DNA from: Microgenomates group bacterium
GTDB taxonomy: Bacteria; Patescibacteriota; Microgenomatia; UBA12405
DNA: 64,000 nucleotides
Reading direction: 5' to 3'
Assembly (NCBI GenBank): GCA_049303675.1
Contig: JBAQNJ010000001.1
Coordinates: forward strand, 278,994-342,993
Part shown: positions 4,782 to 56,816 of the stretch, one piece after another
How the letters are laid out: the number at the start of each line of letters is the position of its first letter
Numbering within the stretch: the first letter of the stretch is position 1
Position numbers and translations under genes: made by a program
The notes under the pieces: generated by a model
What the model was told of the DNA's origin: nothing
Seen by the model: only the letters and a program-made list of their open reading frames with translations
The model's database searches: none

Positions 4782-5541
4782 CTGGATGGAAAAAAGCCCT
4801 CTTTAGATCCACTTGTCCATTCTTAATTTTATTTTTCATGTACAATTTTTGCGGCCAGTAGACCAGCCAATTTATAAAGTTTAAAAATATTGTCTCATTT
4901 CTTTGTTTTGACTTTTTACTTTTTACTTTTGACTTTCGACTATATGGCGTCGCCACATATCTCCCAATCCACTTATTTTCCCTTATAAATTTCTTATATA
5001 TGCCACTTCTGTCTAGTACCGGTACCATCAATATTGAATCCATGGCATTTTTCAAGTTTTGCCTTTTTTGAGGTATTTCCAGCACGTCCTCTTCTAGCCA
5101 CAAATTAAAACAGAATTCATCACCCTTTTCGTTTTTGCCATACTTTCTATGGGGGATACCTCTTAATACCACAAATATTCTCAGCCACAATCTTGTCACC
5201 CATAGGCGGTTTTGTCTGGTGACAATCATCAAATCTATGTCGTCATCGACTTTTGGGTAGCCCGCCGCTACCGAGCCAGTTATGCCAACCAACAAAATAT
5301 TAGGGAAAAACTTTTCAATTAGTTTTACCACCTCCTTTGTTTTTACTATTTTATTATTCTTATTTTTAATTTTTAATTCGTAATTATTAATTCGTAATTT
5401 TTCCAATGCTCTATTTATGAGTTTTTCATTAAATACTGCCCCAGAAATCAAACGTTCCTTTATCACCCGTTTACTATATTCCACCCCATATTTTCTACCG
5501 TATTCTCTAGTTTTATTAATTGCCTCGTTTAATTGGTCCAC
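4765..5541 (-). CDS. Nucleotidyltransferase-fold protein
   Basis: Minimal NTase signature GITGSVAAGYPKVDDDIDLMIV (G-S ... DxD). GTG start 5 nt after a TAGAAT -10 box. Confidence 0.55.
   Translation of the reverse strand: MDQLNEAINKTREYGRKYGVEYSKRVIKERLISGAVFNEKLINRALEKLRINNYELKIKNKNNKIVKTKEVVKLIEKFFPNILLVGITGSVAAGYPKVDDDIDLMIVTRQNRLWVTRLWLRIFVVLRGIPHRKYGKNEKGDEFCFNLWLEEDVLEIPQKRQNLKNAMDSILMVPVLDRSGIYKKFIRENKWIGRYVATPYSRKSKVKSKKSKQRNETIFLNFINWLVYWPQKLYMKNKIKNGQVDLKRAFFHPDDKIG
4906..4940 (+). repeat. Tandem heptamer array TTTTGAC TTTTTAC TTTTTAC TTTTGAC TTTCGAC
   Basis: Read directly. Translated on the opposite strand as the KSKVKSKKSK tail region of the NTase-fold ORF. Confidence 0.85.
5367..5401 (+). 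repeat. Tandem heptamer array TAATTTT TAATTCG TAATTAT TAATTCG TAATTTT
   Basis: Read directly. Lies in the NTase-fold ORF (peptide LRINNYELKIKNKN). Confidence 0.8.
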
Positions 5542-5577
5542 TCTCTATTCTACCTTGGTATAATAATAGTCGTATCT

Positions 5578-7080
5578 ATGAATAAAAATGGCCGTTTATA
5601 CCGAATTCTTGAGATGGTTCCAGGAGTGTTTGCTTGGACAGCCATCACTTTCCCCATTTGGGGAGCCTTTATTTTTCCCAAGGTGGTTGCCTATTTTGTG
5701 ATTGCTTTTCTAATTTACTGGCTTTTTCAATCATTCAAATCAGCCATTTTTGCCATTATTGGTTATTTCAAAATTCATCGAGCTCAAAACACCTTGTGGT
5801 TTGAGCTATACAAACAACACCAAGATACCTCATGGTTGGAATATTCCAAAATTCACCATGTAATTATCATTTCCTCATACAAAGAACCTGTTGAAGTTAT
5901 CGACATGGCTGTAGGCAGTCTAGCTGCTCAAATTGATATCGACCTGCATCAGCTCCATGTGATTGTCGCCCAAGAGCAACGTGCCGGTATAGAAAATAAT
6001 CAGAGAACAATCAAATATTTTCAATCAAAATACAAAAACATTTTTGGCAACTTAATTTTTACCGAACATCCAGCAAATATCCATGGTGAAACTATTGGCA
6101 AACACAGCAACGAGGCCTACGCCGCCAAATATTTCAAAAAACACTATATCGATAATCACCAGTTTGATATTAATTTTCTAACACTCAGTTCTTGTGACGT
6201 TGATACTATTTTTAATCCCAAATATTTCTCTGCTCTTACTTATAACTTCGCCTCTTCCCCAAATCGTTATTTTAGATTCTGGCAGTCTCCCATCTTTTGG
6301 CATCACAATATTAATAGTGTCCCAGGACCAATTAGAATCATCGGAACTCTAGGCAATGTCATTCACATCGCCAATATTCAGGAGCCAGATGGTTTGTTTT
6401 TTAATTACTCCTGCTATTCATCGTCATATAAACTAATCGATTCAGCCGGTTACTGGGATGTCGACATGATACCTGAAGACTGGCATATTTTTCTCCAAAC
6501 ATTTTTTAGTAGCGGTGGTCGTAGCCAGGTTGAACCTATATTTCTCCCTACCATTGTCGACGCCCCCGATGGCAACAACTATCTTGACGCTCTCAAAAAT
6601 AGATACTCTCAATCCGTTCGTCACGCCTGGGGGGCTATTGATATACCCTATGCTATCCGCCAATCTGTGCTTCACCCCGAAATACCCTTTATCACCCGAG
6701 CCCTCCGTGTTTACAAGTTAGTCGAATCACATTTCATTTGGTCTAGTAATTGGTTCATCCTTACCCTAGGCACTTCACTTCCTGTTGTTCTCAACCCCAA
6801 ATTCTTCCAAACCACTATTGGTTTCAACCTACCTCGTATTTCCAATATCATTCTTACGCTCTGTCTTTTCCCGCTCATCTCCCTAATAATTCTCGACTGG
6901 AAACTCCGGCCAAAATATCAAAAAACTGGATTCAAAAATATCATGAACAATATCCTTCAATGGCCTTTTATGCCTTTGGCTACCTTGACCATGTCTGTCC
7001 TCCCCGGTCTCCATTCTCATACTCGACTCATGTTGGGCCAAAGGCTGGAATACAAGACTACCCAAAAAAAGGCAAAGTAA
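5578..7080 (+). CDS. Family 2 glycosyltransferase-like integral membrane protein
   Basis: VIIISSYKEPVEV, SSCDVD and a QSVRHAWG (Q-x-x-R-W-like) motif, flanked by TM segments. I prefer the ATG at 5578 (MNKNGRLY), 13 nt after TGGTATAAT, over the track start at 5533. Confidence 0.6.
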   Translation: MNKNGRLYRILEMVPGVFAWTAITFPIWGAFIFPKVVAYFVIAFLIYWLFQSFKSAIFAIIGYFKIHRAQNTLWFELYKQHQDTSWLEYSKIHHVIIISSYKEPVEVIDMAVGSLAAQIDIDLHQLHVIVAQEQRAGIENNQRTIKYFQSKYKNIFGNLIFTEHPANIHGETIGKHSNEAYAAKYFKKHYIDNHQFDINFLTLSSCDVDTIFNPKYFSALTYNFASSPNRYFRFWQSPIFWHHNINSVPGPIRIIGTLGNVIHIANIQEPDGLFFNYSCYSSSYKLIDSAGYWDVDMIPEDWHIFLQTFFSSGGRSQVEPIFLPTIVDAPDGNNYLDALKNRYSQSVRHAWGAIDIPYAIRQSVLHPEIPFITRALRVYKLVESHFIWSSNWFILTLGTSLPVVLNPKFFQTTIGFNLPRISNIILTLCLFPLISLIILDWKLRPKYQKTGFKNIMNNILQWPFMPLATLTMSVLPGLHSHTRLMLGQRLEYKTTQKKAK

Positions 7081-7093: not shown

Positions 7094-8545
7094 ATGGTCA
7101 AGGTTTTTATACACAAGAACCGTTTTTTTATTATTCTATTTTTAATTTTTGTTTTATTACGTTTACCTTCTCTTTTTGAACCATATTGGTATGGCGATGA
7201 GGGGATTTATCTGGTACTAGGTCAAGCCATCCGTAGAGGTCTTGTTCTCTATACCCAAATTCACGATAACAAACCACCCACTCTCTATTACCTCGCTGCC
7301 CTTGCCCAGACAGTTTTTGGTTTTCGGCTTCTGTTGGCCCTATTCATGGCCGGAGCTTACTATTATTTTTATTTATTATCCAATAAATTATTGTCCTCAA
7401 AACTTTCTCAAGTTTCTTGTTTCTTGTTTCTTGTTTTAACTTCCATTCCCCTAATCGAAGGTAATATCGCCAATGCCGAGGTCTTTATGCTCCTCCCCAC
7501 TATTGCCGGTATATATTATTTTCTCTATTCCCATTCTAGTTTCAAATTTCTAGTTTCAGGCCTTTTACTTGGTTTCGCTTTCACCATCAAAATTCCAGTA
7601 GTAGTCGAATTTGGTTTTCTTGGTCTCTGGCTATTGATAAACAATAAAAATAATATCTACTCTACTCTAAAAAATTTATTCTTCTTCTCTCTTGGTTTCA
7701 TTTTTCCTTTTACCCTATACTTTATTTATTTTTATTTTAAGGGGGCTTTATCAGATTTTGTCTTCGCCTCAATTCTCCAAAATTTTGGCTATCTATCATC
7801 ATGGCAAACAGGCACTCACTCTGGCACGGCCACCAATAGTGGGTTGATAATCAGAGCCGTTACTCTGCTTGTTTTTTGGGGCACCACTTATTATCTGTAT
7901 TTAAAAAAATATCTCACCAAAAACACTTACCTTATTTTATTTTGGTTTTCTGCCACCATTTTTGGTGCACTTTTATCTGCCCGCCCATATCCTCACTATT
8001 TGATTCAGGTCACTCCGCCTCTCTGTCTGTTGATTCTCGCTATTTTTGATTCCAAGTTACATCCAAAAATTCGCTACTTTATTTTATTTTTGTGTTTTGT
8101 GTTTTGTGTTTTGATTTTTAGATTTAAATTCTATGCCTATCCCGTCTTTTCCTATTATAAAAACTATTATTCCCATCTCACCAGTCTAAGCTCACGCAGT
8201 TATCGAAATTATTTTGGATCCCGAGTTGACGATACCTACCAAATTTCCCAATACCTAAAAGACAATACCAGTCCTAACGACAAAATATTTGTTTGGGCCG
8301 ACGAACCCTATATTTATGCTCTCTCTTCTCGACTGCCAGTCGGCCGATTTACGGTTGCCTATCATATAGTCGACTTCAACCAGTACCTGCCCACATACAA
8401 CCAATTAATTGTTGATTTTCCCAAAGTAATTGTTACTTTTCCAATGAATAATCGACCCTATCCCGAACTCGAGAGATTACTAAAACTTTACTATCATCCC
8501 GATGCCAGCATCGGTGACTCAACCATATATTTTCGTACAGATTAA
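7094..8545 (+). CDS. GT39/GT83 (ArnT/PMT-like) polytopic glycosyltransferase
   Basis: About 12 TM segments. N-terminal YWYGDEGIYLVLGQ...HDNKPPTLYYL loop typical of ArnT/PMT-type lipid-linked sugar transferases. Confidence 0.6.
   Translation: MVKVFIHKNRFFIILFLIFVLLRLPSLFEPYWYGDEGIYLVLGQAIRRGLVLYTQIHDNKPPTLYYLAALAQTVFGFRLLLALFMAGAYYYFYLLSNKLLSSKLSQVSCFLFLVLTSIPLIEGNIANAEVFMLLPTIAGIYYFLYSHSSFKFLVSGLLLGFAFTIKIPVVVEFGFLGLWLLINNKNNIYSTLKNLFFFSLGFIFPFTLYFIYFYFKGALSDFVFASILQNFGYLSSWQTGTHSGTATNSGLIIRAVTLLVFWGTTYYLYLKKYLTKNTYLILFWFSATIFGALLSARPYPHYLIQVTPPLCLLILAIFDSKLHPKIRYFILFLCFVFCVLIFRFKFYAYPVFSYYKNYYSHLTSLSSRSYRNYFGSRVDDTYQISQYLKDNTSPNDKIFVWADEPYIYALSSRLPVGRFTVAYHIVDFNQYLPTYNQLIVDFPKVIVTFPMNNRPYPELERLLKLYYHPDASIGDSTIYFRTD
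7413..7433 (+). repeat. Tandem heptamer (TTTCTTG)x3, 21 nt
   Basis: Exact triplication read directly. Translated as CFLFLVL in a TM segment. Confidence 0.9.
8088..8108 (+). repeat. Tandem heptamer (TTTTGTG)x3, 21 nt
   Basis: Exact triplication read directly. Translated as LCFVFCVL in a TM segment. Confidence 0.9.
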
Positions 8546-10769: not shown

Positions 10770-11690
10770 ATGCGTCATTGGCTGATTTTTATTATTATTT
10801 CCTGTTCTTGTATTTTTTTGTCTTATTCTTACTTCTTAAATCATAAATCATATATCATATCCCCAACTGTTTATCAAAATTATATCCCGACAATCACTCC
10901 AACCCCCACACTGTCACCAACTGTGACAGTGGGCTTCGTCGGCGACCTTGGACTAGGCCGACACATCACCAGTACTGCTCGCAATAAAAATGATTTCAGT
11001 TGGAGCTTCACTCAAATTAATCCATGGCTATTGCAAAACGATTTTACCCTCGCCAATTTAGAGTCACCCATTATAACCAATTGTCCCTTAGGAAAAACCG
11101 GTACTTTTACTTTTTGTGGCGACCCAAAATTCATTCCCTACCTTACTCCATTTGTTATGAACCTCAACAATAACCATATTCTCAACTATGGTCTCGACGG
11201 TCTAAACCAGACAAAAAAATATTTACCCGACACCAGTTTTTACGACAATTTTTATATTAAAAAAGTGAATGGAATTTCTTTTGGATTTCTAGGATATGAT
11301 TTTATTACCTATCCACTCCAAGACAAACAGAAAATACTCAACGCTATAAGGTTGGCTAAACCACAGGTTGATTTTCTAGTGATATCCATTCACTGGGGTA
11401 ATGAGTATCTACCCCAACCAGAAAAATGGCGAGTAGAGTTGGCTCATCAAATGATCGATGCTGGGGCCGATTTTATTCATGGCCATCATCCTCATGTTTG
11501 GCAGGGGGTCGAGACTTACAAGGATAAATTAATTTTTTATTCTTTTGGCAACTTTATTTTTGACCAGAGTTGGTCCTACGAGACATCCCATTCCCAAATC
11601 GCCCGAGTTACTTTTGGCGACAATAAAATAAATTATGAATTATTTCCCATTGAGATCCGTTTTAACTCCCAACCCCGTCTAATACCTTGA
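10770..11690 (+). CDS. CapA/PGA_cap family metallophosphoesterase-like protein
   Basis: VGDLGLGRH, NLESPI, ISIHWGNEY, GADFIHGHHPHVWQG and YSFGNFIFDQ motifs. Confidence 0.75.
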   Translation: MRHWLIFIIISCSCIFLSYSYFLNHKSYIISPTVYQNYIPTITPTPTLSPTVTVGFVGDLGLGRHITSTARNKNDFSWSFTQINPWLLQNDFTLANLESPIITNCPLGKTGTFTFCGDPKFIPYLTPFVMNLNNNHILNYGLDGLNQTKKYLPDTSFYDNFYIKKVNGISFGFLGYDFITYPLQDKQKILNAIRLAKPQVDFLVISIHWGNEYLPQPEKWRVELAHQMIDAGADFIHGHHPHVWQGVETYKDKLIFYSFGNFIFDQSWSYETSHSQIARVTFGDNKINYELFPIEIRFNSQPRLIP

Positions 11691-13256: not shown

Positions 13257-13270
13257 TTTATATTCTGTAG

Positions 13271-13298
13271 ACTGTTAACTGTTCACTGATAACTATTT
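13271..13298 (+). repeat. Tandem heptamer array ACTGTTA ACTGTTC ACTGATA ACTATTT
   Basis: Read directly. Intergenic between the rpe-like gene and gap, overlapping the gap stop codon. Confidence 0.8.
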
Positions 13299-14327: not shown

Positions 14328-14375
14328 AATTCAATTTTATACATAATTCTTAATACTTGATACTAAATACTTTTA

Positions 14376-15434
14376 TTATTCCCATGCTACTAATTTTCCT
14401 TTTGTCAACAGTTCCAACATCATTCCACCACCAGAAGCTATCAAATCAATTTTATCCTTCATTCCCAAATTCTCAATCGATGCAGTTGTATCACCACCAG
14501 CAATTATCTTATAAGCATTTGATTCAGCCACAGCGACAGCTATCTCTTCTGTCCCTTTTTTACAATCTTCTTTTTCGAACCATCCCATCGCTCCCGCCCA
14601 GACTATCATCTTTGATTCACTAATTACTTTTTTAAATTCTTCAATATCCTCCTCGCTCAAATCAAACGTGTCCTCCCTCAACTTAGCAATTTTTATTTTT
14701 CCACTATTCACTGTTAACTGTTCACTATTAACTAAAAGCGGTAATTTACCGCCAATAAGTATGTTATCAGCGATCTTGAGGATTTCAGCAATGTGGTCCA
14801 GTTTGTCTTCCTTTGCTCCCCCTAAAATAATGGTCAAGGGACTAGTCTTTTCCTCCACCACTTTCATTATTTTATTTACCTCTTCAATAAACGCCAGTCC
14901 ATAAAATCCAGGCATCTCTTTATACAACATGTTAGACCTTTCTCTTCGGTGGGACACCGCTAGGGCATCATTCACAAAAAATTGACAAATTTCCACCAAG
15001 TTTTTCAAAAAATCACTGTCATTATTTTCTTCACCCTTCCAAAAACGTAAATTTTCCAAAAACACAATCTGATTTTTAGATATCGCCATATCTAATTTTT
15101 CAAAATTACCCACATCTTCCACAAAAATACTCTCAATCATATTTTCGCCATTTGGTTCAAGTAGCGTCATCAACTCCAAGTAGACAGGTCTAAGTGATAA
15201 CTTTGGATCATAGCCATCAGGCTTGCCCGCCGTAGCCTTGGCGTAGGTGGGTCTACCTAGTTTTCCCACAATCACTATCTTACATTTTTTATCCATCAGT
15301 AACCTTATCGTTGGAATTGACTTAGACAACCTAGCATTGTCCCTCACCATCCCCTCCATCATAGGCACGTCCAAGTCTAGTTTTAGAATTACTTTTGTTT
15401 CTGGTAATATTTCCTCAACCGATCTCAGTTTCAT
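14376..15434 (-). CDS. pgk: Phosphoglycerate kinase
   Basis: LDLDVPM...RDNARL...IPTI N-terminal motifs and GGDT..A near the C-terminus. I start at Met33 of the track ORF (MKLRSVEEIL), which removes a 32-codon extension that runs back over the 3' part of rpiB and leaves a 20-nt overlap with the rpiB 3' end. Confidence 0.9.
   Translation of the reverse strand: MKLRSVEEILPETKVILKLDLDVPMMEGMVRDNARLSKSIPTIRLLMDKKCKIVIVGKLGRPTYAKATAGKPDGYDPKLSLRPVYLELMTLLEPNGENMIESIFVEDVGNFEKLDMAISKNQIVFLENLRFWKGEENNDSDFLKNLVEICQFFVNDALAVSHRRERSNMLYKEMPGFYGLAFIEEVNKIMKVVEEKTSPLTIILGGAKEDKLDHIAEILKIADNILIGGKLPLLVNSEQLTVNSGKIKIAKLREDTFDLSEEDIEEFKKVISESKMIVWAGAMGWFEKEDCKKGTEEIAVAVAESNAYKIIAGGDTTASIENLGMKDKIDLIASGGGMMLELLTKGKLVAWE
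14703..14737 (+). repeat. Tandem heptamer array ACTATTC ACTGTTA ACTGTTC ACTATTA ACTAAAA
   Basis: Read directly. Lies inside pgk, translated as LLVNSEQLTVNSG. Confidence 0.8.
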
Positions 15435-15861
15435 ACTTTTTAATTTTATTAATTCTTCTGATATACCTCTCCTCAGATCCAAAAGTAGTTGCCAAAAACA
15501 GCGCCATAATCTTTTCGTTATCTTCCACACTTACCGAATCTGCCGACAAGCAAAGTACATTAATATCATCGTCATTTCGAGCCGCCCGCACTAGCTTCTC
15601 CGAAGTGCACAACCCAGCCCGTATTCCTTTGACCTTATTGGCCGCAATCGATGCACCAGCTCCTGAGCCACATACCAATATTCCCTTAACATTTTCCACC
15701 GCCACTTTTTCTGCCAGCTTTATGGCTATATCCGTATAATCATCATCTTTGTCGTACTCGGATGCTCCCAAATCCCTAAATTCATAATGTTCGGATTCCA
15801 ATATTTTTTTTAGTTCTTCCTTGAGTCTAAAGCCTCTATGATCGGCGCCAATATAAATCAT
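15415..15861 (-). CDS. rpiB: Ribose-5-phosphate isomerase B
   Basis: IGADHRGFRLKE and CGSGAGASIAANK motifs; 148 aa. Confidence 0.9.
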   Translation of the reverse strand: MIYIGADHRGFRLKEELKKILESEHYEFRDLGASEYDKDDDYTDIAIKLAEKVAVENVKGILVCGSGAGASIAANKVKGIRAGLCTSEKLVRAARNDDDINVLCLSADSVSVEDNEKIMALFLATTFGSEERYIRRINKIKKYETEIG

Positions 15862-19393: not shown

Positions 19394-19779
19394 ATTTTTT
19401 CGGAAAACATTAATACATAGCCACTATTGTCCTTCATTGAAAATTCTTTTGATCCGTAAAAGGTTGTATGTTTTTCAGCGACTATCTCAACTTTACCTTT
19501 TACCTTTTCATACAGCTCATCCAATCCTTCAAGCTCAATATATTGAACTACACTTCCACCAATACTTTTTGTCTTAAACTCGACAATTTCTTCTCCCATA
19601 CTTTCGGGAGTCATAAACATAAACCCAACTTCACTTTCTGGCCACATGACATTAGCCCACACTAGGTCGCCTTCCCCGACACTGTTGGTTAATTCAAAAC
19701 CCAATACACTAGTATAAAAGTCGACAGATTCTTTAATGTTCCTAACCACCAACTCTGGAGTTAATCTTTTTATTTTCAT
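19390..19779 (-). CDS. VOC (glyoxalase/bleomycin-resistance) family protein
   Basis: 129 aa with the N-terminal pattern LVVRNIKESVDFYTSVLGFEL typical of the VOC fold. Confidence 0.65.
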   Translation of the reverse strand: MKIKRLTPELVVRNIKESVDFYTSVLGFELTNSVGEGDLVWANVMWPESEVGFMFMTPESMGEEIVEFKTKSIGGSVVQYIELEGLDELYEKVKGKVEIVAEKHTTFYGSKEFSMKDNSGYVLMFSEKI

Positions 19780-20661: not shown

Positions 20662-21297
20662 CTCATTTTTTAATCTCTCTAATATTTTTGGTGTTATCGG
20701 CCATAAAGTAGCCGCAGTATAATCCGCGTATTCTTCTGGTGTCATTTCTGATAAAGTATTTTTTTTCCCTTCAGGAATAAAAAACCAATCAAAATAATAA
20801 CCAAGTTTTGTAATTCGTAATTCATTTGCCGCTGTACCTCTTGTTCTGACACCTTCCGAAATTACTTCACCATTAGGTATAGCCAAGGCAATTCCATAAC
20901 CAAAATAAATAGTTCGATTTTCAGTACCATTCAATTTGTCTAACAGTTTTTGAGTATTAGTTACGTCCGACTCGTATCGATTGTCTACTCCCAGTATCAT
21001 TTTGTCGTTGCCTGTTAATTCTTTTTTGGATTCTGTCCCTGGCCAGCCACCAAGTGCTTCAAATTCAATTCCTCTGTCAAAAGAAATCGACATCAGACCA
21101 GATGCTCTGCAGTAAGCCCTAGCCTTCAATTCACTATCACCTACAAAGCTACCCGAATTCTCCTCAACTTCAATATCTATCCCCAGTTCTTTAGGGTTTA
21201 CAAATCTATACAGCTTATCAAGTCCCAACTTTCGACAAGAATATAAAAATGGTTCTACCTTTGATCTATTTGTCGTCGCAATTAGTAGGTCTTTCAT
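20650..21297 (-). CDS. Ham1/RdgB-like non-canonical purine NTP pyrophosphatase
   Basis: LLIATTNRSKVEPF N-terminus and FDRGIEFEALGGWPGTES resemble the ATgN.gK and D.GL.v.aL.G.PG motifs. Confidence 0.65.
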   Translation of the reverse strand: MKDLLIATTNRSKVEPFLYSCRKLGLDKLYRFVNPKELGIDIEVEENSGSFVGDSELKARAYCRASGLMSISFDRGIEFEALGGWPGTESKKELTGNDKMILGVDNRYESDVTNTQKLLDKLNGTENRTIYFGYGIALAIPNGEVISEGVRTRGTAANELRITKLGYYFDWFFIPEGKKNTLSEMTPEEYADYTAATLWPITPKILERLKNESGE

Positions 21298-25715: not shown

Positions 25716-25721
25716 TAAAAT

Positions 25722-29525: not shown

Positions 29526-31226
29526 ATGATAAACTTACTAGTGATCCAAAAAATGCTTTTCTTTTTTACTTTTTACTTTTTACTTTTTACTTTCGTCCCC
29601 CATGTTTTTGCCGATATAAATGATGATATAGCGCAGCTTAGTAAACAAATTTCCGCCCTAGATGCTGCCATCGCCCCCCTCAAAAAAGAATCTACCGGAC
29701 TCTCCGCCAAAATTTCCTCAGCCAAAGCCACCATTCTCAAAACCGAAAAACAAATTACCGACCTTGGTGTCCGCCTGATTGACAAGGAGGCGGATCTCGA
29801 AGTCCAAAAAACTCTTCTCTCTTCTCGAGTTCGTCGTTATTACATCAACACCAAAAAATACAATCCACTCCTCATCTTTTTTGCCTCTACCGAGAGTACT
29901 TCTCTCCTCCGCCAATATTCTTGGTATCAATCAATTATTAGTACTGATCGCAATACCATTGTTGGCTATGTCAACGATATTAATTCTCTTAATCAAAATA
30001 AAATAAAATTAGAAGCTGAAAAAGTCAAATTGGCCGTCATCAAAAAAAATCTTGAATCCCGTTTTGGCTTTTTAGCCGGTGAAATCCAAAAAGCCGAGGC
30101 CTACAAAAATGAACTTAGCAAAAAACAGCAAGCCTTAATCGCCGAGAAAACCGCTATGTTCAACACCAGCGTTGGTGACGTCTCCTCATCCGACGATCCC
30201 GCCTCTAGATCCGATTATAATCCGGGGTTTTCCCCTGCTTTTGCTGTCTTTTCTTTTGGCGCCCCCCATCGTAAAGGTATGTCCCAATACGGTGCTTTTG
30301 GTCGATCCAAGGCAGGGCAATCCGCCGAAACCATTCTCAAGGCCTACTATGGCGATATTCGTCTCGAGAAAATGGACTCACCAGCTTCAATCCGCACCAC
30401 AGTTGGTATCCTTCCCTTCGAAGATAATTACTTAGTCGGTATCGCCGAAATGCCCGCTAGTTGGGGAGATTTAGGTGGCTATGAAGCACTCAAAGCTCAG
30501 GCCATTGCCGCTCGCACTTATGCCATCAATTCCACCAACAATTTATCCGGCACTATTTGTGTCACCGAGGCTTGTCAGGTCTACAGTCGTTCCCGACTCA
30601 ATTCACCGGGGCGCTGGCGTCAGGCAGTTATTGATACTCGGGGTATAGTTATCAAAAGCAACAAAACTGGCCGAGTTTTCTCCACCATGTATGCTTCGAC
30701 TTCTGGTGGGGCCATCACTTCATATTCCAGTTCCGATCACAGCACTCCTATGGTTTGGGATACCACTTGTGGCAGCCAGTCCTGCTGGCCATCTGGAGCC
30801 TACGAAAAATCAGCAGGTTCTTCGTGGTATTACAAGGGTTGGTACAAGACTCGTAGCAATGTCTCCGCCGGTCGATCTCATCCATGGTTAAATCAAGAGG
30901 AATTTTCCGACATTATCAATGCTATTATTTATTTTTCCAAAAACAAAGACTCTTCTCATTTATCTCAAATCCAAAATTGTCTCGGTTCCTGTGATTCAAA
31001 TGCGTGGTCTAGGGACGAACTTCGTAGGCAAGTAGGCAACGCCGTAAGTTCAGTCAACTCTGTCTCTGTTGACTATTCTACCGCTGGCTATACCCAAACC
31101 GTTCGAGTCAGTACCGACAAAGGTGATTTTAGCTTTAATGGCACAGACTTTAAAGAAATATTTACCCTCCGTGCCCCAGGTGCCCTGACTGCTAAATCCA
31201 GTCTCTTCAATATTGAGAAAAAATAA
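29526..31226 (+). CDS. SpoIID/LytB-domain protein with N-terminal coiled coil
   Basis: GYEALKAQAIAARTYAI and CVTEACQVY are SpoIID motifs. The N-terminal half is heptad-rich. The alternative start at 29553 gives the signal peptide MLFFFTFYFLLFTFVPHVFA. Confidence 0.75.
   Translation: MINLLVIQKMLFFFTFYFLLFTFVPHVFADINDDIAQLSKQISALDAAIAPLKKESTGLSAKISSAKATILKTEKQITDLGVRLIDKEADLEVQKTLLSSRVRRYYINTKKYNPLLIFFASTESTSLLRQYSWYQSIISTDRNTIVGYVNDINSLNQNKIKLEAEKVKLAVIKKNLESRFGFLAGEIQKAEAYKNELSKKQQALIAEKTAMFNTSVGDVSSSDDPASRSDYNPGFSPAFAVFSFGAPHRKGMSQYGAFGRSKAGQSAETILKAYYGDIRLEKMDSPASIRTTVGILPFEDNYLVGIAEMPASWGDLGGYEALKAQAIAARTYAINSTNNLSGTICVTEACQVYSRSRLNSPGRWRQAVIDTRGIVIKSNKTGRVFSTMYASTSGGAITSYSSSDHSTPMVWDTTCGSQSCWPSGAYEKSAGSSWYYKGWYKTRSNVSAGRSHPWLNQEEFSDIINAIIYFSKNKDSSHLSQIQNCLGSCDSNAWSRDELRRQVGNAVSSVNSVSVDYSTAGYTQTVRVSTDKGDFSFNGTDFKEIFTLRAPGALTAKSSLFNIEKK
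29563..29597 (+). repeat. Tandem heptamer array (TTTTTAC)x4 + TTTCGTC
   Basis: Read directly. Encodes the signal/TM peptide FYFLLFTF of the SpoIID-like ORF. Confidence 0.9.
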
Positions 31227-39243: not shown

Positions 39244-39247
39244 CGCA

Positions 39248-46490: not shown

Positions 46491-46497
46491 TCTTAGA

Positions 46498-46565
46498 GTG
46501 TTTAGAAGACCCTTAGGGGTTGACAACCGAGTCCGCCAAATGGTCCACGGTGCCCACTAAAACAC
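46498..46565 (+). promoter_or_regulatory. Structured metK 5' leader, candidate SAM-I/IV-like riboswitch
   Basis: Closing helix GTGTTTAG...CTAAAACAC encloses ACCC-TTA-GGGT, GACAACC, CCG...CGG and GGTGCCC (compare the SAM-I/IV core GGCAACC...GGUGCC). Followed by CCTT...AAGG around the SD. Confidence 0.35.
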
Positions 46566-46589
46566 GCCTTATCAATTAAAAGGAAAAAT

Positions 46590-47690
46590 ATGAATTATCC
46601 TCAATTTTCGTCCGAATCTGTCTGTGAAGGTCACCCCGACAAAGTCTGTGACCAAATTAGTGATGCTATCTTAGACGCTGCCTATACCCTCGACCCTATG
46701 GCTCGGGTCGCTATCGAGACTTTGGCTACGGTCAACAAATTAGTTTTAGCCGGAGAAGTTACTATTAATGGTACTCTCGATTATGCCGCTATTGCCCGCC
46801 AAAAGATCGCCGAGCTCGATTTTCTCGATTCAGTTTTAGATTTTACCGACAAATGCGACATCGAAATTGCTGTCCACACACAGTCACCCGATATTGCTCA
46901 GGGCGTCAATGCTGGTGGAGCCGGTGATCAGGGGATGATGTTTGGTTATGCTTGTCGCGAGACACCCGAACTAATGCCCCTTCCCATTTCCATGGCTCAC
47001 AAATTATGCCGTCAAATGGACGAATTACAGCGCATTCATCGTTGGATGCGCCCCGATGGCAAGTCTCAGGTTACCGTTCGTTATGATGGTCAGACTCCGG
47101 TAGCCATCGAGCGAGTTGTCTTGGCCAAGCCCATGAATTACGACCTCGCCCCTGCTGATTATTCTCACTTTTTCTATCAAAATGTCATTGTTCCAGTCTT
47201 AGCTGAATACAAGTTTGAAATCAGTGAAGACAAAATGATTCTCAATGGTACCGGTAAATGGACCATTGGTGGCCCCTCCGCCGATACTGGCGTTACTGGC
47301 CGCAAAATTGTCGTTGATACTTACGGTGGTATGGGTCGTATTGGTGGTGGTTGCTTTTCCGGCAAGGATACTACCAAGGTCGATCGCAGTGCCGCCTACG
47401 CCGCTCGCTATATTGCCAAAAATATTGTGGCTGCAGGTCTCGCCGATCGCTGCGAGGTTCAATTAGCCTATGCTATTGGTCAAGTCCTGCCTGTTGGTCA
47501 ATCTATTGAGACTTTTGGCACTGCCAAGTCAGAATTAAAGGTAATCGAAGATTTTGCATGGAAATTACTCGAATTATCGGTCGCTGGTATCAACAGTGGT
47601 CTCAATCTCCGCGTGCCAATGTATGCCAAAACCGCCCGCTATGGCCACTTTGGCCATCCCGAGTATCCATGGGAGAAGATAAAAGGCTAA
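46590..47690 (+). CDS. metK: S-adenosylmethionine synthetase
   Basis: SESVCEGHPDKVCDQISDAILDA, GAGDQGMMFGYA and DTYGG motifs. Confidence 0.95.
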   Translation: MNYPQFSSESVCEGHPDKVCDQISDAILDAAYTLDPMARVAIETLATVNKLVLAGEVTINGTLDYAAIARQKIAELDFLDSVLDFTDKCDIEIAVHTQSPDIAQGVNAGGAGDQGMMFGYACRETPELMPLPISMAHKLCRQMDELQRIHRWMRPDGKSQVTVRYDGQTPVAIERVVLAKPMNYDLAPADYSHFFYQNVIVPVLAEYKFEISEDKMILNGTGKWTIGGPSADTGVTGRKIVVDTYGGMGRIGGGCFSGKDTTKVDRSAAYAARYIAKNIVAAGLADRCEVQLAYAIGQVLPVGQSIETFGTAKSELKVIEDFAWKLLELSVAGINSGLNLRVPMYAKTARYGHFGHPEYPWEKIKG

Positions 47691-48019: not shown

Positions 48020-48436
48020 ATGCAAGTTAGTATCTACACCGATGGTGGTAGTCGAGGCAATCCAGGCCCTTCCGGTTTTGGCGTCGTTATTTATGACGAA
48101 CACAAAAAAATCATCGAAAAAATCAGTCAGTTTGTGGGAGTGAAGACCAACAATGAAGCCGAATATCTCGCCCTCAATGAGGCAATTTCTTGGGTCAAGC
48201 ACAATTATCAAAAGTTGGACATCACTCAAATCGAATTTTATTCCGATTCTCAGCTCTTAGTCCGCCAAATGCAAGGCAAATACAAGGTCAAGGCTCCTAC
48301 TATTGTTCCACTTTATCGTCTTGCGGCCTCCACTCTCTTTGAATTAAAATTAAATTATTCTTTTCACGAAATTTTACGTGAATTAAATTCCGTCGCCGAC
48401 TCTCTTGCTAATCAAGCAATGGATAATAAAAAATAA
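48020..48436 (+). CDS. rnhA: Ribonuclease HI
   Basis: IYTDGGSRGNPGPSGFG, NNEAEYLAL and SDSQLLV motifs. TGTTACAAT + 6 nt + ATG. Confidence 0.9.
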   Translation: MQVSIYTDGGSRGNPGPSGFGVVIYDEHKKIIEKISQFVGVKTNNEAEYLALNEAISWVKHNYQKLDITQIEFYSDSQLLVRQMQGKYKVKAPTIVPLYRLAASTLFELKLNYSFHEILRELNSVADSLANQAMDNKK

Positions 48437-50217
48437 TGAATAATAATCTATATAAAAATAGTACTTTCCCCCTTTTTCAAGGGGGGATTAAGGGGGGTTT
48501 TGTATTAAAAACTTTTTTTTACTTTTTACTTTTTACTTTTGTTTTTATTTTAATTTTTACTCTCCCTCTTATTTTCGGTTTTGGCAAAACCGGCAAAAAC
48601 ACTCTTGTTTTAGGCAAAGACTATTCCTTACTCTCCAAATCCCAAATAATTTCTCGCTTATCAGTCGATTTTCCTCTTCCTCCCAGCCTGAATATTCAGA
48701 CCTCAAACCGCAAATTTACTCTCAATTTAGCCGATATCTCCGCCCAATACGACTATCCCTCAATCGCATCCAATCTACTATTCCGTCGACTTCATAGTGG
48801 AGTTTTACCTTATTTTAAGGCATTTTTTCAGCCAAAAAACTTTAGCCTTAGTCTCGATTACAGCTCCGATTCACTCGATAAACAAATTGCCAATATCTCC
48901 CAGCAGGTCGATCATCCCTTTGTTCCCTCCCAATTTAGTCTCGATGAGAAATCCAAAGAAATCATCCTCAAAAACGGTGAACGGGGGCAAAGAGTCAATT
49001 CTGAAGAATTGAAAAACCGTCTCGTCTCTGCTCTTCGTTATTATGAGGCATCTACCCCTATCGACCTTCCCCTCGACCCTATTGGTGAGTTGCCCACTAC
49101 TGATCAAATTAGTAGTGCCACCGCTGTCGCTCAGTCCCTTATCGGCAAGAAGCTCGAATTTTCCGCCCCCGACGAGGTTGTCACCCTCGACGACAAGACC
49201 CTTATTTCTTGGGTCGACTTTGGGACCATTTGTCGCCGCTCCACAGTTGATGATTATGTCGCTGGACTGAAGTCTAGTCTGAAAAAGGATCCTGTCGAAG
49301 CCGTCTTCAAATTTGAAAATGGTCAAGTCCTCGAATTTCAACCATCTAAAAATGGTTATCTATTAGATGACTCCAATTTAAGCCAACAAATTTGTTCAAA
49401 AATAGTTGAACTATCCCAATCCTCGGACAAAATAATTAAGGATAAATTCCCAGTTATCACCCTCGAAACCAAGACTCAAAACTCTGATGTCAACAATTTA
49501 GGCATCAAAGAATTAATTGGCAGTGGCACCTCTACCTTCCGTCACAGTAGTACTATTCGCAATATCAATGTCGAGCGCGGCGCCCAAATAGTCAATCGCA
49601 TTTTAGTCGCCCCAGGCGAAAAGTTTTCCTTTGTCAAAGCTCTTGGCGATGTCACCATCGAAAATGGTTTCAAAATGGCTTATGTCATTCGGGCCGGCAA
49701 GACGGAATTAGACGTTGGTGGTGGTATCTGTCAGGTCTCCACCACTTTTTTCCGCGCCCTTCTCAATTCTGGGCTCGATATAATTGACAGACGCAACCAC
49801 GCCTATCGAGTCCAATACTATGAAGAAGACATGCCCCCAGGTTATGACGCCACTGTTTTTATCCCCAGTCCTGATTTATCTTTTGTCAACGACACTGGCC
49901 ATCATATCCTTATTCAAAGTAAATATGATGGTAAAAATAAACGGCTTACCTACGATCTTTATGGTACCTCCGATGGTCGATCTGTCGATATTAGCAACTA
50001 TCGCCAATGGGGAGCTGCTCCTGCTCCTCCGGCGGTCTATATTGACGATCCTACCTTACCGGCGGGCAAAGTCGTTCAGGACGAGCACGCTATTCCAGGA
50101 CTGAAGACATCTTTTGACTGGAAAGTGACCCGAGCCGGAGAGATAATCCATCAGAAAACCTTTACCAGCAATTTCGTCCCTTGGGCCGCCGTTTTCCGTC
50201 GCGGACCGCAAATTTAA
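48436..50217 (+). CDS. VanW family protein
   Basis: GGGICQVSTTFFRALLNSGL and RNHAYRVQYY VanW core; N-terminal TM anchor. Confidence 0.8.
   Translation: MNNNLYKNSTFPLFQGGIKGGFVLKTFFYFLLFTFVFILIFTLPLIFGFGKTGKNTLVLGKDYSLLSKSQIISRLSVDFPLPPSLNIQTSNRKFTLNLADISAQYDYPSIASNLLFRRLHSGVLPYFKAFFQPKNFSLSLDYSSDSLDKQIANISQQVDHPFVPSQFSLDEKSKEIILKNGERGQRVNSEELKNRLVSALRYYEASTPIDLPLDPIGELPTTDQISSATAVAQSLIGKKLEFSAPDEVVTLDDKTLISWVDFGTICRRSTVDDYVAGLKSSLKKDPVEAVFKFENGQVLEFQPSKNGYLLDDSNLSQQICSKIVELSQSSDKIIKDKFPVITLETKTQNSDVNNLGIKELIGSGTSTFRHSSTIRNINVERGAQIVNRILVAPGEKFSFVKALGDVTIENGFKMAYVIRAGKTELDVGGGICQVSTTFFRALLNSGLDIIDRRNHAYRVQYYEEDMPPGYDATVFIPSPDLSFVNDTGHHILIQSKYDGKNKRLTYDLYGTSDGRSVDISNYRQWGAAPAPPAVYIDDPTLPAGKVVQDEHAIPGLKTSFDWKVTRAGEIIHQKTFTSNFVPWAAVFRRGPQI
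48465..48501 (+). repeat. REP-like element, short form (copy F)
   Basis: TTTCCCCCTTTTTCAAGGGGGGATTAAGGGGGGTTTT. Translated as FPLFQGGIKGGF in the VanW N-terminus. Confidence 0.85.
48516..48536 (+). repeat. Tandem heptamer (TTTTTAC)x3
   Basis: Read directly. Encodes FYFLLFTF, the same peptide as at 29563-29597. Confidence 0.9.
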
Positions 50218-51782: not shown

Positions 51783-52884
51783 AAAAGTTTAATCGTGGAT
51801 CACGGTCCAGAGTCTCGGGATCCGACCATTCTTTTCGCTTCGCCAATTCCCAGCCCACTCTTCCAATCATGGCCGCATTATCGGTATTTAGCCATATTTT
51901 CGCTGGCATATAAATTAGCAATTTCTTTTTTCTGGCTAGGGCTCTCAGTTTTTTTCGAAGCATCATATTGGCCAGTACCCCTCCCGAGGCCATTATAGTT
52001 TTTGGCTCATATTTATCAATCGCCAAATCAAATTTTCTAATCAAAGTATTGAATACCGACTCTTGAAATGTTGCCGCCAGACTAGCCAAATTTTTATTTT
52101 TTTCCTCTATTGACCAGTCTTTTATTTTATAATAAAAACTAGTTTTCAGTCCCGAAAAGCTATAGTCCAACACTTTTTTATCGGCGAGCGGTTTGGGTAA
52201 TTCAAACAAATTATTATTGGCGCCAGCTTGCATCGCCAGTCGCTCTATCACCGGCCCCCCAGGGTATCCCAAACCCAGTAATTTTGCCGCCTTATCCAAC
52301 GCTTCTCCCGCCGCATCATCCAACGTTTCCCCCACTACAGTATATTTTTGTAAGGGCGTACCCTTGTGGTCGCCCTTTTCCAAAAGTACAATCTTCGTAT
52401 GTCCTCCACTTACCGTCAGGCAAATAGCTGGCAGCTCTATCTCTCTCTCTGGCAATCCTTTACTATTTTTGACGAGGTTAGACAATATATGTCCCTCCAC
52501 ATGATTCACCGCCACCAATTTTTTATTATATTTTATCGCCAATTCACAGGCAGTTTTCACCCCTACTCCTAGAGCAATCGCCAGCCCCGGCCCTTTCGTC
52601 ACTGCAATTACATCAACAGACTTCATGTAATATTCCAATGTCTTTCTCTCCCTTGTCAAAGGGAGATGCCCCGAAGGGGAGAGGGATTGAGAACGTTTCA
52701 ATGCCGTCATTATCACCGGCAAAATTCTCGCTTGATGTGCTCTTTTCGCAATATCCGGTACCACCCCACCCCAATCTTTATGCAAATCAGTTTGCGAGGA
52801 AATTACATTACTTATCACTCGATCATTTTCCAGCACTGCCGCACAGGTATCATCACAGCTGGTTTCAATCGCCAATATTTTCAT
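51781..52884 (-). CDS. tsaD: tRNA N6-adenosine threonylcarbamoyltransferase TsaD
   Basis: ILAIETSCDDTCAAV, NHVEGH, SGGHT and DDAAGEALDK motifs. Carries two repeat-derived in-frame insertions. Confidence 0.92.
   Translation of the reverse strand: MKILAIETSCDDTCAAVLENDRVISNVISSQTDLHKDWGGVVPDIAKRAHQARILPVIMTALKRSQSLSPSGHLPLTRERKTLEYYMKSVDVIAVTKGPGLAIALGVGVKTACELAIKYNKKLVAVNHVEGHILSNLVKNSKGLPEREIELPAICLTVSGGHTKIVLLEKGDHKGTPLQKYTVVGETLDDAAGEALDKAAKLLGLGYPGGPVIERLAMQAGANNNLFELPKPLADKKVLDYSFSGLKTSFYYKIKDWSIEEKNKNLASLAATFQESVFNTLIRKFDLAIDKYEPKTIMASGGVLANMMLRKKLRALARKKKLLIYMPAKIWLNTDNAAMIGRVGWELAKRKEWSDPETLDRDPRLNF
52345..52377 (+). repeat. GC-palindrome element, copy 2 (inside tsaD)
   Basis: TTTTTGTAAGGGCGTACCCTTGTGGTCGCCCT. 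Translated on the minus strand as KGDHKGTPLQK. Confidence 0.7.
52643..52688 (+). repeat. REP-like element, long form (copy G, inside tsaD)
   Basis: TTTCTCTCCCTTGTCAAAGGGAGATGCCCCGAAGGGGAGAGGGATT. The second hairpin is CCCC-GAA-GGGG instead of CGGC-GTA-GCCG. Translated on the minus strand as QSLSPSGHLPLTRERK. Confidence 0.9.
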
Positions 52885-54159: not shown

Positions 54160-54191
54160 TCCCCCTTGTTAAAGGGGGATTTAGGTGGATT
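54160..54191 (+). repeat. REP-like element, short form (copy H)
   Basis: TCCCCCTTGTTAAAGGGGGATTTAGGTGGATT, 18 nt upstream of the lemA ATG. Confidence 0.85.
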
Positions 54192-55615: not shown

Positions 55616-55727
55616 CGCTAGTGTCATTCCCGCGCCGTGTCAGTCTGTAGCTTTAGCGTAGGATGATAGGTGGGAATCTATTAAATTTATTTGTCCTATT
55701 CATAAATCTTAAATCGTATATCTTAAA

Positions 55728-56816
55728 TCAAAAATTTATCTCCCGTGTCGTCTCATCCACATAGCTAAAATTAATCGGTATATAGTTAGTTATTTTTTTT
55801 AATTTATTTAGGTATTCTTCACCCATATTTTCCGGCCACTCAATACAGGCAACTAGCTCTGAGCTTGTCGAAGGGAATTGTTCCAAAAATTTTATTTCCT
55901 CAAATTCATATTTATTTCCCAATCTATACAAATCAAAATGTAAAAATTTCTTGCACTGATAACTGTTCACTGATAACTGTTCACTGATTAAATATTCATT
56001 ATAAATTACAAACGTCGGGCTAGTTATTTTTTCCTTTACCCCGAGTAGTTGTCCTATCTTTCGGGAAAATACAGTCTTTCCACAACCTAGGTCTCCGCTC
56101 AATCCAAACACTAGAGGTTTTCTCTCCCTTGTTAAAGGGAGAAGCGGCGTAGCCGAGAGGGATTTGTTCAACAAAAATTCAGCAATTTTCTCCGTTTCCT
56201 TTTCCGATTTAGAAATTAGTGTTTGGGATTTCCCCACTATCAAGTCTCCCCGTCTGAGGATTTTTATCTCCGGTTCAGTGGCGTCAATTACTGTCGATGG
56301 TTTGTTCCGTGGTAATTTACCACTGTCCACCATCATATCGATCATCATCAATTTTTTCTGGGACAGAGTTTTTACAAAGCTTGCCAGTGAATAGTGGGGA
56401 GTCCGTCCCGACAGATTCGCTGACGTCGCCGTCACTGGCCCTCCCACCGCCTTCACCAGATCCATTATCCATTGGTTATCCGGTATTCGTATTCCCAATG
56501 TCCCATTTTCCGCCTCTATACCCTTGGCCACCTTATGTTTGCCCTCCGACACAATCGTAAAAGGTCCGGGTAGCAAGTTTGCATAAATATTTTCTGCATT
56601 TTCACTCAGTTTTACAAAATCTTGTGCCATTTTTTTATCTGCTACAGCTATCGATATCGCCTTCCCCGTCCATCTGTTTTTAAATGCGAGAAGTTTATCT
56701 GTTGCGCTCTGGCTTCTCGGATCTACCGCCAAAATGTACACCGTATCACTCGGGAATATTACTAGCCCACCATCTTTTATTATTCTGGCCGCCTTTTCAA
56801 TATCCTCGACTTTCAT
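55728..56816 (-). CDS. Fusion of a Sua5/YrdC (TsaC) domain and TsaE
   Basis: N-terminal half: FPSDTVYILAVD, LPGPFT, TATSANLSG, STVID, ILRRG (YrdC fold). C-terminal half: GDLGCGKTVFSRKIG, SPTF, HFDLYRL, IEWPE (TsaE). Confidence 0.8.
   Translation of the reverse strand: MKVEDIEKAARIIKDGGLVIFPSDTVYILAVDPRSQSATDKLLAFKNRWTGKAISIAVADKKMAQDFVKLSENAENIYANLLPGPFTIVSEGKHKVAKGIEAENGTLGIRIPDNQWIMDLVKAVGGPVTATSANLSGRTPHYSLASFVKTLSQKKLMMIDMMVDSGKLPRNKPSTVIDATEPEIKILRRGDLIVGKSQTLISKSEKETEKIAEFLLNKSLSATPLLPLTRERKPLVFGLSGDLGCGKTVFSRKIGQLLGVKEKITSPTFVIYNEYLISEQLSVNSYQCKKFLHFDLYRLGNKYEFEEIKFLEQFPSTSSELVACIEWPENMGEEYLNKLKKITNYIPINFSYVDETTREINF
55955..55989 (+). repeat. Tandem heptamer array ACTGATA ACTGTTC ACTGATA ACTGTTC ACTGATT
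   Basis: Read directly. Lies inside the TsaE module, translated as ISEQLSVNSYQ. Confidence 0.85.
56118..56165 (+). repeat. REP-like element, long form (copy I, inside the TsaE module)
   Basis: TTTCTCTCCCTTGTTAAAGGGAGAAGCGGCGTAGCCGAGAGGGATTT. Translated on the minus strand as SLSATPLLPLTRERKP just before the P-loop strand. Confidence 0.9.

Follow-up and report, generated by a model that had tools for sequence, protein, structure and literature searches.

Heptanucleotide tandem arrays inside and between the genes of a Microgenomates bacterium: probable generation and homogenisation in place

Why should short tandem arrays of a few seven-nucleotide units recur at separate places of one bacterial genome, inside genes as well as between them? 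The question is raised by a 64,000-nucleotide (nt) stretch from a Microgenomates group bacterium (GenBank assembly GCA_049303675.1, contig JBAQNJ010000001.1, positions 278,994 to 342,993), which we call the window. A preliminary description of this DNA had listed nine heptamer arrays and had argued for a templated or mobile origin. The analysis reported here leads us to a different answer, to which we assign a probability of about 0.7, namely that these arrays are heptanucleotide simple sequence repeats that are generated and homogenised in place by slippage and are then filtered by selection.

The arrays were located by Tandem Repeats Finder (TRF) and by our own period scans over the 64,000 nt. 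All nine arrays of the preliminary description are present at the positions it gave, and TRF recovers them independently. At least six further heptamer arrays were found (7534-7557, 10837-10860, 14339-14372, 19492-19508, 20810-20823 and 55703-55729), so that the density reaches about 15 per 64 kb, with more than ten different units. About two-thirds of the arrays lie inside open reading frames (ORFs), in transmembrane (TM) helices and loops, and their host genes are ordinary ones: gap, pgk, a Sua5-TsaE fusion, and genes for SpoIID-like, VanW-family, CapA/PGA_cap, nucleotidyltransferase-like and multi-pass membrane proteins. The arrays are as follows, each given on the plus strand.

4906..4941, plus strand: (TTTTKAC)x5, a mix of TTTTGAC and TTTTTAC with TTTCGAC as last unit, inside the nucleotidyltransferase-like gene 4765-5541 (minus strand)
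5362..5402, plus strand: (TAATTNN)x5.9, in the N-terminal part of the same gene 4765-5541 (minus strand)
7412..7436, plus strand: (GTTTCTT)x3.6, perfect, in the membrane protein gene 7094-8545 (plus strand), peptide VSCFLFLV
7534..7557, plus strand: (TTCTAGT)x3.4, imperfect, in the membrane protein gene 7094-8545 (plus strand), found by TRF
8082..8119, plus strand: (TTTTGTG)x3.7, perfect with degenerate flanks, in a TM helix of the membrane protein gene 7094-8545 (plus strand), peptide LCFVFCVL
10837..10860, plus strand: (TAAATCA)x3.3, imperfect, at the N-terminus of the CapA/PGA_cap gene
13265..13298, plus strand: ACTGWTM family, TAACTGA-like, over the gap stop codon and the gap-rpe spacer
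14339..14372, plus strand: (ATACTTA)x4.9, occupying the pgk-gap spacer
14702..14737, plus strand: ACTRTTM family, five units, inside pgk 14376-15530 (minus strand), in the variable loop after GGKLP, peptide LVNSEQLTVNS
19492..19508, plus strand: (TTTACCT)x2.4, short, in the glyoxalase-family gene 19390-19779 (minus strand)
20810..20823, plus strand: (GTAATTC)x2, which is GAATTAC GAATTAC in gene sense, in a Ham1-like gene (minus strand), peptide NELRITK
29563..29597, plus strand: (TTTTTAC)x4.4, perfect, plus a TTTCGTC unit, codons 13-24 of the SpoIID-like gene 29526-31226 (plus strand), signal or anchor helix FTFYFLLFTFV
48516..48540, plus strand: (TTTTTAC)x3.6, perfect, N-terminal TM helix of the VanW-family gene 48436-50217 (plus strand), codons 27-35, peptide FYFLLFTF
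55703..55729, plus strand: (TAAATCT)x3.9, beginning at the Sua5-TsaE stop codon
55954..55989, plus strand: (ACTGATA ACTGTTC)x2.5, perfect 14-nt period, in the TsaE domain of the Sua5-TsaE fusion gene 55728-56816 (minus strand), peptide ISEQLSVNSYQ

These arrays are genuine and not assembly artefacts, because two independent Logan assemblies (SRR28062869 and SRR28062879) are 100% identical over the VanW array and because reading frames stay open through the arrays. The preliminary description was correct that two TTTTTAC arrays encode the same peptide, FYFLLFTF, which belongs to the hydrophobic helix at the N-terminus of both the SpoIID-like and the VanW protein. It had also read a KSKVKSKKSK tail from the other strand. 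In the sense of its host gene the array at 4906 is GTCGAAA GTCAAAA GTAAAAA GTAAAAA GTCAAAA and encodes RKSKVKSKKSK, so the peptide is indeed encoded there, but KSKVKSKKSK occupies approximately residues 201-212 of a 258-aa protein and is therefore internal rather than a terminal tail. The product of this gene has a weak Pfam match to an MTPAP-like palm domain and is named nucleotidyltransferase domain protein at NCBI. Its second array, at 5362, consists of AATTACG and AATTAAT units in gene sense and gives KLRINNYELKI. The array at 13265 reads TAG TTATCAG TGAACAG TTAACAG T in gene sense; it begins at the TAG stop of gap, occupies the gap-rpe spacer and ends about 14 nt from the rpe start, in 'reverse' orientation relative to that downstream gene. 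The array in pgk, whose units are ACTATTC, ACTGTTA, ACTGTTC and ACTATTA, lies only 1.4 kb from it in the same operon, and the claim that members of a family sit at unlinked loci is thus true of the tsaE copy, 41 kb away, but not of this pair. The array at 55703 reads TTTTTGA TTTAAGA TATACGA TTTAAGA TTTATGA in gene sense, with the Sua5-TsaE stop within its first unit.

Such arrays clearly exceed what base composition would give. With dinucleotide-preserving shuffles of the window as the null, exact arrays of at least three copies number four at period 7 against 0.0 expected and zero at periods 6 and 8-15. Imperfect tracts number six at period 7 and seven at period 14, each against 0.07 expected, with a single tract at period 12 and none at periods 4-6, 8-11, 13 and 15-21. 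The excess extends to exact two-copy duplications, 19 of which have period 7 (4.65±2.03 expected) and one period 8 (1.2 expected); these heptamer duplications use diverse units and likely represent the birth, or seed, stage of the arrays. Coding periodicity slightly raises periods 6 and 9. In 372 kb of Shapirobacteria-like loci from relatives, period 7 again stands out with 12 arrays against 0.2 expected, and no other period is in excess. The arrays are therefore beyond chance, and specifically at period 7, in the window and in its relatives alike.

The evidence that bears most directly on their origin comes from orthologous sites, which reveal shared array positions, equal lengths in coding sequence and variable copy number in spacers. 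The closest relatives found through pgk are metagenome-assembled genomes of Candidatus Shapirobacteria, and loci from relatives are labelled L005, L006, L008, L009 and so on, L005 having 74% identity in the pgk comparison and L009 74% identity for VanW. The pgk loop after GGKLP is of equal length in the window, L005 and L006, which rules out an insertion origin of the pgk array. In gene sense this array is GTTAATAGTGAACAGTTAACAGTGAATAGT in the window and ATTACTAATGACCAATTACTAATTACTAAT in L005. The two show eleven differences, among them G to A at the first position of each of the five units and A to C at the fifth position of four, and a permutation test gives P=1.5e-4 for such parallel per-unit changes. 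A similar pattern is found at the 5362 site, where L005 carries AGTTATC AGTTAAC AGTTACG AGTTACG AGTTAAG, with A to G in 5/5 units (P=2.6e-4). Since 7 and 3 are coprime, each position of the unit shifts to another codon position from one unit to the next; therefore selection on the protein cannot yield parallel changes unit by unit. The parallel changes mark homogenisation at the DNA level, or concerted evolution.

The other sites extend this picture. At the 7412 site L005 has GATTACG TGTTACG GATTACG in the same place and at the same length, and the period-7 signal is significant in both L005 (P=0.025) and L006 (P=0.018), while at the 7534 site it is not clear in L005 (P=0.15) and marginal in L006 (P=0.047). 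L005 keeps TAAATCT TAAATCA at the 10837 site (P=0.010), has (AATTTAA)n in the gap-rpe spacer (P=0.004) and has AATTAAT, AATTACT and AATTACG units in the pgk-gap spacer (P=0.003). In L008 the site in the Ham1-like gene retains ACGAATT x2.7, and in L009 the VanW site holds an equal-length degenerate version, TTTTTAT ACTTTAC TCTTTGG (P=0.006). Overall, L005 displays period-7 structure at six of eight orthologous sites, mostly with another unit (P from 0.0005 to 0.025), and in the more distant L006 this structure is mostly gone. At the 8082 site both relatives have a TM helix of the same length without any repeat, and the array there is therefore lineage-specific and overwrites a pre-existing helix. 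Since orthologous sites of the arrays in the pgk, nucleotidyltransferase-like, membrane protein, CapA and VanW genes are equal in length in relatives, the in-gene arrays are not insertions and evolve in place. The preliminary suggestion that the repeats create TM segments consequently finds no support, the helices being already present at the same length in relatives and the arrays overwriting them.

Creation of loops, suggested at the same time, is plausible for the TsaE loop only. The array in the Sua5-TsaE gene sits in the loop YNEY..FLHxDLY, an indel hotspot across relatives and the sole site where an array adds length relative to the shortest of them. This hotspot also accepts repeats other than heptamers, because the loop of L019 has an apparent period-8 repeat, AGTCTGTC AGCTAATC AGTCTATC AGCTTGTC (period-8 match 0.50), with the peptide LSANQSISLS. 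In L018, L031, L032, L012, L013 and L022 the same loop carries GC-rich hairpin elements (TLTPxPFPLTGQGEK), a repeat class described below.

Inside genes, the arrays also bear the marks of the reading frame. The only units that form perfect arrays are those without a stop in any sense frame (GTTTCTT, TTTTGTG and TTTTTAC). The consensus of four coding arrays would contain an in-frame stop, which variant bases remove in each of the four; in the array at 10837, for example, a variant base abolishes an in-frame TAA. The four cases, each with the consensus peptide followed by the actual one, are listed here.

KLKIKN(stop)KLKI becomes KLRINNYELKI
NHKS(stop)II becomes NHKSYII
IVNS(stop)(stop)LIVNS becomes LVNSEQLTVNS
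ISDQ(stop)SVISDQ becomes ISEQLSVNSYQ

The 14-nt period of the ACTGWTM arrays exists because variant bases remove in-frame stops. Arrays that are T-rich in the sense direction encode F, L, Y, C and V and are found in hydrophobic signal or TM helices, and those that are A-rich encode K, S, N and E and are found in loops and linkers. From these sequences, coding arrays appear to be filtered by selection. Length behaves in the same manner. The only coding indel seen at an array is one of exactly 21 nt, the gap of L006 at the 5362 site of the nucleotidyltransferase-like gene, and in simulations a gain or loss of one or two units cuts SpoIID short within 27-35 residues and VanW within 36-122, but three added units leave both in frame. 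Both results agree with the earlier remark that three units, or 21 nt, are frame-neutral. In the spacer at the tsaD stop codon, by comparison, relatives carry 0, about 3, 5, 6, 7, at least 9 and at least 16 copies of AATTAnn units, two of these arrays, (AATTACC)n in L016 and L027, extending to the contig end.

The shared polarity of the arrays, which the preliminary description had presented as always the same, can be explained as follows. The plus strand has C over G and T over A across the window, which lies entirely on one skew arm, and third-codon-position GC skew read on the plus strand is -0.43 for plus-strand genes and -0.33 for minus-strand genes; the skew is thus a strand-wide mutational bias independent of gene orientation. 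Rotations of TTTTTAC, 201 on the plus strand against 50 on the minus strand, are among the commonest plus-strand 7-mers. The T-rich polarity therefore follows from strand-wide skew together with the need for a stop-free sense, and these suffice. Moreover, orientation is not fixed in the lineage, because in L005 the counterpart of the gene 7094-8545 carries an imperfect ATTACG-type array on the opposite strand. A count of A[AG]TTA-core arrays on the G-rich strand (8:0) was not relied on, as five of the eight are one orthologous tsaD site; the L005 array just named also runs counter to it.

We next consider the recurrence of units, on which the claim of a templated or mobile origin had been based. 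That unit families recur across loci is borne out. Identity is 94% over 33 nt between the arrays at 4906 and 29563, which have the degenerate terminal unit TTTCGWC in common, and 96% over 24 nt between those at 13271 and 55955. Among the window arrays, no similarity was found past the array edges, and common flanks, terminal repeats and target duplications were likewise missing. In the 64 kb, each of two unit families is present at three loci, and L005 also reuses one unit family at several loci. When seeds are drawn at random from the window's own 7-mers, however, 37% of trials yield one family with at least three loci and 3.4% yield two (P=0.034), and for this reason recurrence was set aside as proof of copying and taken as modest evidence at most. 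With TTTTTAC rotations so common, recurring units imply copying between loci only weakly. Some units are clearly preferred intrinsically. Of the 13 arrays in relatives, 7 have units with an A[AG]TTA core, for which the background is 6.6% (P=6.5e-6), and viral contigs contain 107 stretches of (TAACTGA)3, compared with 3 and 6 for two control heptamers of matched composition. The viral scans served chiefly as composition-matched controls, and the presence of arrays in them identifies no vector; on three IMG/VR viral contigs (L062, L091 and L125), a span of a few kb holds three to five separate (TAACTGA)n loci. Unit types are not homogenised genome-wide: at pgk the window has G-type units and L005 A-type ones, and at the nucleotidyltransferase locus it is the other way round.

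The explanation that we favour, slippage in place followed by selection, may work as follows. A replication or repair process favouring 7-nt register shifts, for which slipped-strand mispairing or out-of-register exchange within the array is a candidate, would seed arrays and keep them homogeneous, acting genome-wide on spacers and genes alike. A coding array would survive only in an orientation and unit variant without in-frame stops, only if the net length change is zero or a multiple of three units (21 nt), and only in tolerant segments such as signal or TM helices, loops and linkers, while copy number in spacers would drift freely. TAACTGA-like and A[AG]TTA-core units would be intrinsically preferred, as in other phyla. 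Polymerase slippage would then be the molecular cause, as we infer from these patterns. Several points weigh against this explanation. Slippage alone does not account for the stretches of 24-33 nt shared between loci, including TTTCGWC at 4906 and 29563, nor for the 20-35-fold excess of TAACTGA over composition-matched heptamers on viral contigs. Homogenisation that is length-neutral in essential genes would seem to need paired gain and loss, 21-nt steps or out-of-register conversion, and any reason offered for the period of seven is hypothetical. No copy-number polymorphism was found within the species, independent assemblies with identical neighbour proteins being 100% identical, and the 90%-identity clusters of six host proteins contain no sequence variants, so it is from the comparison between species alone that ongoing slippage is deduced.

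Among other explanations, the one that survives best, although we consider it unlikely, is that blocks of arrays are copied between loci by ectopic gene conversion, a small mobile element or a templated heptad-writing enzyme. The long matches between arrays, the two three-locus families (P about 0.03), the repeated unit family of L005 and the over-represented A[AG]TTA core would all suit copying, as would the fact that TAACTGA arrays are elsewhere often found at several loci of a contig, with 169 sets in one Beggiatoaceae genome (PMC4679880). Against this, the presence of a perfect array makes no difference to the length of an orthologous site, which leaves no room for insertion, and the arrays lack common flanks, terminal repeats and target duplications. 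The more than ten unrelated units, already diverse at the two-copy stage, the units swapped between pgk and the nucleotidyltransferase gene and the high background frequency of TTTTTAC rotations point the same way. A templated or mobile origin is thus not supported, in view of equal site lengths, concerted per-unit changes, missing footprints and the variety of units, and the recurrence that had been offered as strong evidence for it is not strong.

It is less probable still that the arrays are functional cis-elements, that is, putative binding sites for a protein or RNA factor held at operon spacers by selection. Relatives keep arrays in the same positions, both in the spacers of the rpiB-pgk-gap-rpe operon and at the tsaD stop codon, intergenic arrays start at or near the upstream stop and end just ahead of the next start, and the unit sequence is biased; there are also precedents in the TAACTGA repeats of Beggiatoaceae (PMC4679880) and, reportedly, in the ToxR-bound TTTTGAT heptads of the cholera toxin promoter. 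However, about two-thirds of the window arrays are within ORFs, in TM helices and loops, and close relatives have different units at one and the same site, so that no sequence-specific site is kept. Unlike in Beggiatoaceae (PMC4679880), the gap-rpe array is 'reverse' to its downstream gene, and the lack of Shine-Dalgarno (SD) motifs is genome-wide (present in 6/44 genes) and not tied to genes preceded by repeats.

We see an equally small chance that a dedicated activity, such as an enzyme of repair or recombination or a polymerase that adds templated repeats, installs or converts particular heptamers at many loci. That such an activity should be common to the Candidate Phyla Radiation (CPR), cyanobacteria, Beggiatoaceae, Bacteroidetes and some viruses, and length-neutral even in essential genes, is improbable to the same degree. 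If true, it would explain the TAACTGA excess, the shared 24-33-nt blocks and the length-neutral overwriting of helices and loops.

Slightly below these we place the idea that the arrays are phase-variation switches, in which slippage by one unit turns cell-envelope genes off and on. The perfect arrays of the SpoIID-like gene (codons 13-24) and of VanW (codons 27-35), the two in the membrane protein and the imperfect (TAAATCA)x3.3 in the CapA N-terminus are located as such switches would require, the simulated truncations by one or two units and the open frame after three fit as well, and the Haemophilus HMW adhesins reportedly offer a precedent (PMC8262952, PMC12721329). But copy numbers are low (3-4.4), similar arrays exist in the essential pgk and tsaE, for which being switched off would do harm, every independent assembly has the same in-frame sequence, and these sites are equal in length in relatives. 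Finally, an artefact of chance or composition in an AT-rich, skewed genome, to which common T-rich plus-strand 7-mers and the mild effect of coding periodicity on periods 6 and 9 might have contributed, is refuted by shuffles that give 0-0.07 arrays against the 4-7 seen, with periods 6 and 8 not enriched, and has next to no probability.

The window contains other features that stand apart from the heptamers. There is a second class of dispersed repeats, short GC-rich hairpins of the form TCCCCCTT-GTTA-AAGGGGGA and TCTCCCTT-GTCA-AAGGGAGA, several of which are in frame within ORFs (tsaD, the Sua5-TsaE linker and the VanW N-terminus, with the peptides PLLPLTRERK, SPLLKGDRGG and PLFQGGIKGG). They recall the Rickettsia palindromic elements, which insert in frame into genes, and they may be more unusual than the heptamers. 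In the relative L032, (CTTCCCC)x2.6 occurs twice, 2 kb apart (5887-5904 and 7842-7859), and may belong to this hairpin class. A perfect 34-nt direct repeat, TTTATTAAATTCTGTTAAATTATTAAATTTTATT, is present at 41534-41567 and 43577-43610, two AT-rich sites 2 kb apart, and TRF reports a period-37 repeat at 43461-43573. An SD-like motif was seen in the 25 nt upstream of 6/44 gene starts, and a TATAAT-like box lies about 7-12 nt before many starts (for example 17821, 22636, 45147, 48020, 51737 and 54136), which suggests, on the strength of motifs, that leaderless mRNAs may be widespread. The Rfam scan of the window gave no match to large-subunit (23S) rRNA, and ORFs at 25283-25981 are spurious, lying wholly or largely inside the 16S gene. 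The hairpins and the Rfam matches are located as follows.

31803-31823, 54160-54180, 52643-52666, 56119-56166, 32188-32219, 36048-36089 and about 48466-48495: GC-rich hairpins
24120-25618, plus strand: 16S rRNA, single copy, on the C-rich strand (Rfam)
39247-39678, minus strand: tmRNA (Rfam)
46493-46599, plus strand: SAM-I/IV riboswitch, directly upstream of metK at 46590-47690 (Rfam)
20532-20603 and 60185-60257: two tRNAs (Rfam)

Over-represented 7-nt repeats have been a recognised feature of prokaryotic genomes since 2007, and for the question of their cause the present lineage is an unusually clean natural experiment, with small genomes, dense arrays, orthologous sites and readable per-unit substitutions, and as such it makes the rates of 7-nt steps, 21-nt steps and conversion measurable. 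It shows that non-triplet repeats can persist in essential enzymes and supply sequence for signal or TM helices and loops, which is relevant to gene calling and to protein evolution in CPR genomes. It also takes TAACTGA-like heptads to a fourth, very distant phylum and so weakens the case for horizontal transfer among a few groups.

How do these arrays compare with known systems? Heptanucleotide repeats are the most abundant class of long simple sequence repeats (LSSRs) in most prokaryotic genomes, and slippage linked to the polymerase footprint has been proposed as the cause (Mrazek, Guo and Shah 2007, as relayed by PMC4679880 and PMC4692102). As far as that survey is relayed there, our arrays resemble its LSSRs in forming an over-represented 7-nt tandem class, sporadic across lineages, with an excess confined to period 7. 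Head-to-tail 7-nt copies beyond the composition expectation, a period-7-specific excess and copy-number variation at orthologous loci (the tsaD site and the 21-nt gap of L006) are all found here. Unlike the coding repeats of that survey, which by the same relayed accounts are mostly multiples of three, about two-thirds of the arrays here are in ORFs, including pgk and tsaE, and are kept open by compensating variants. The survey, on these accounts, did not include the CPR/Microgenomates lineage, and in our search of the literature heptamer arrays were nowhere described for CPR bacteria.

The arrays are also like the TAACTGA direct repeats of Beggiatoaceae, Cyanobacteria and Bacteroidetes (MacGregor 2015, PMC4679880), proposed in Beggiatoaceae as translational control sites. 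The ACTGWTM unit of the window resembles TAACTGA in a shifted register (TAACTGT/TCACTGA), and identity to (TAACTGA)n is 22/28 at 13265, 25/35 in pgk and 30/35 in tsaE, each unit being about one base off with no perfect TAACTGA dimer at the three loci. As in MacGregor's repeats, there are several loci per genome, an upstream stop codon is overlapped and 'reverse' copies within ORFs encode LSVISYQ-type peptides, here QLSVNSYQ in the TsaE loop and QLTVNS in the pgk loop. The differences are that the units here are imperfect, that all three loci are 'reverse' to neighbouring genes and that they are one family among many; in place of many forward sets just upstream of starts, there are three loci in 64 kb, two of them in ORFs. 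A missing SD motif, which MacGregor observed, is uninformative as a repeat-specific trait in this window, where 6/44 genes have one.

Dispersed heptamer arrays are reportedly also typical of heterocystous cyanobacteria, whose short tandemly repeated repetitive (STRR) units are said to have been given by Mazel in 1990 as CCCCAGT, TTGGTCA and CAACAGT. Units of the window such as GAACAGT, TAACAGT and TATCAGT resemble the last of these, with matches at 22-27 of 28-35 positions. STRRs, unlike the arrays here, are long, mostly intergenic and confined to cyanobacteria, and we know of no established function or mechanism for them. For Calothrix PCC7601, three tandem heptanucleotides have been reported, to go by the citing paper (PMC4692102). 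The GGGAATC/GGGGAYT repeats of Xanthomonas and Nostoc are G-rich, quadruplex-forming and about 90% intergenic (PMC4692102); they share with our arrays a lineage-specific heptamer excess and variation of length and sequence at orthologous intergenic sites, whereas the arrays here are AT-rich and mostly coding. The in-ORF tandem repeats of Borgs are similar in being fast-evolving perfect repeats that add or replace protein segments, but their unit lengths are always divisible by three (PMC9879509), whereas the 7-nt unit here is read in all three frames and gives a peptide period of 7 aa per 21 nt.

Heptamer repeats in Haemophilus hmw promoters reportedly drive phase variation of the HMW adhesins (PMC8262952, PMC12721329), and TTTTGAT heptads of the Vibrio cholerae ctxAB promoter are reported to be bound by ToxR (preprint 10.1101/2021.05.14.444153). 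Both resemble our arrays in an AT-rich 7-nt unit (TTTTGAT against TTTTGAC and TTTTGTG here) and in copy-number changes by slippage, but they are in promoters and reportedly have demonstrated regulatory roles and strain polymorphism. The ends or flanks of miniature inverted-repeat transposable elements or repetitive extragenic palindromic sequences, and a gain of length at insertion sites, were not found at our arrays. Thus, the repeat class is already known from other bacteria and is not a new mobile element; what makes the present arrays noteworthy is their density inside genes, including essential ones, their clean signal of concerted evolution and the occurrence of TAACTGA-like heptads in the CPR.

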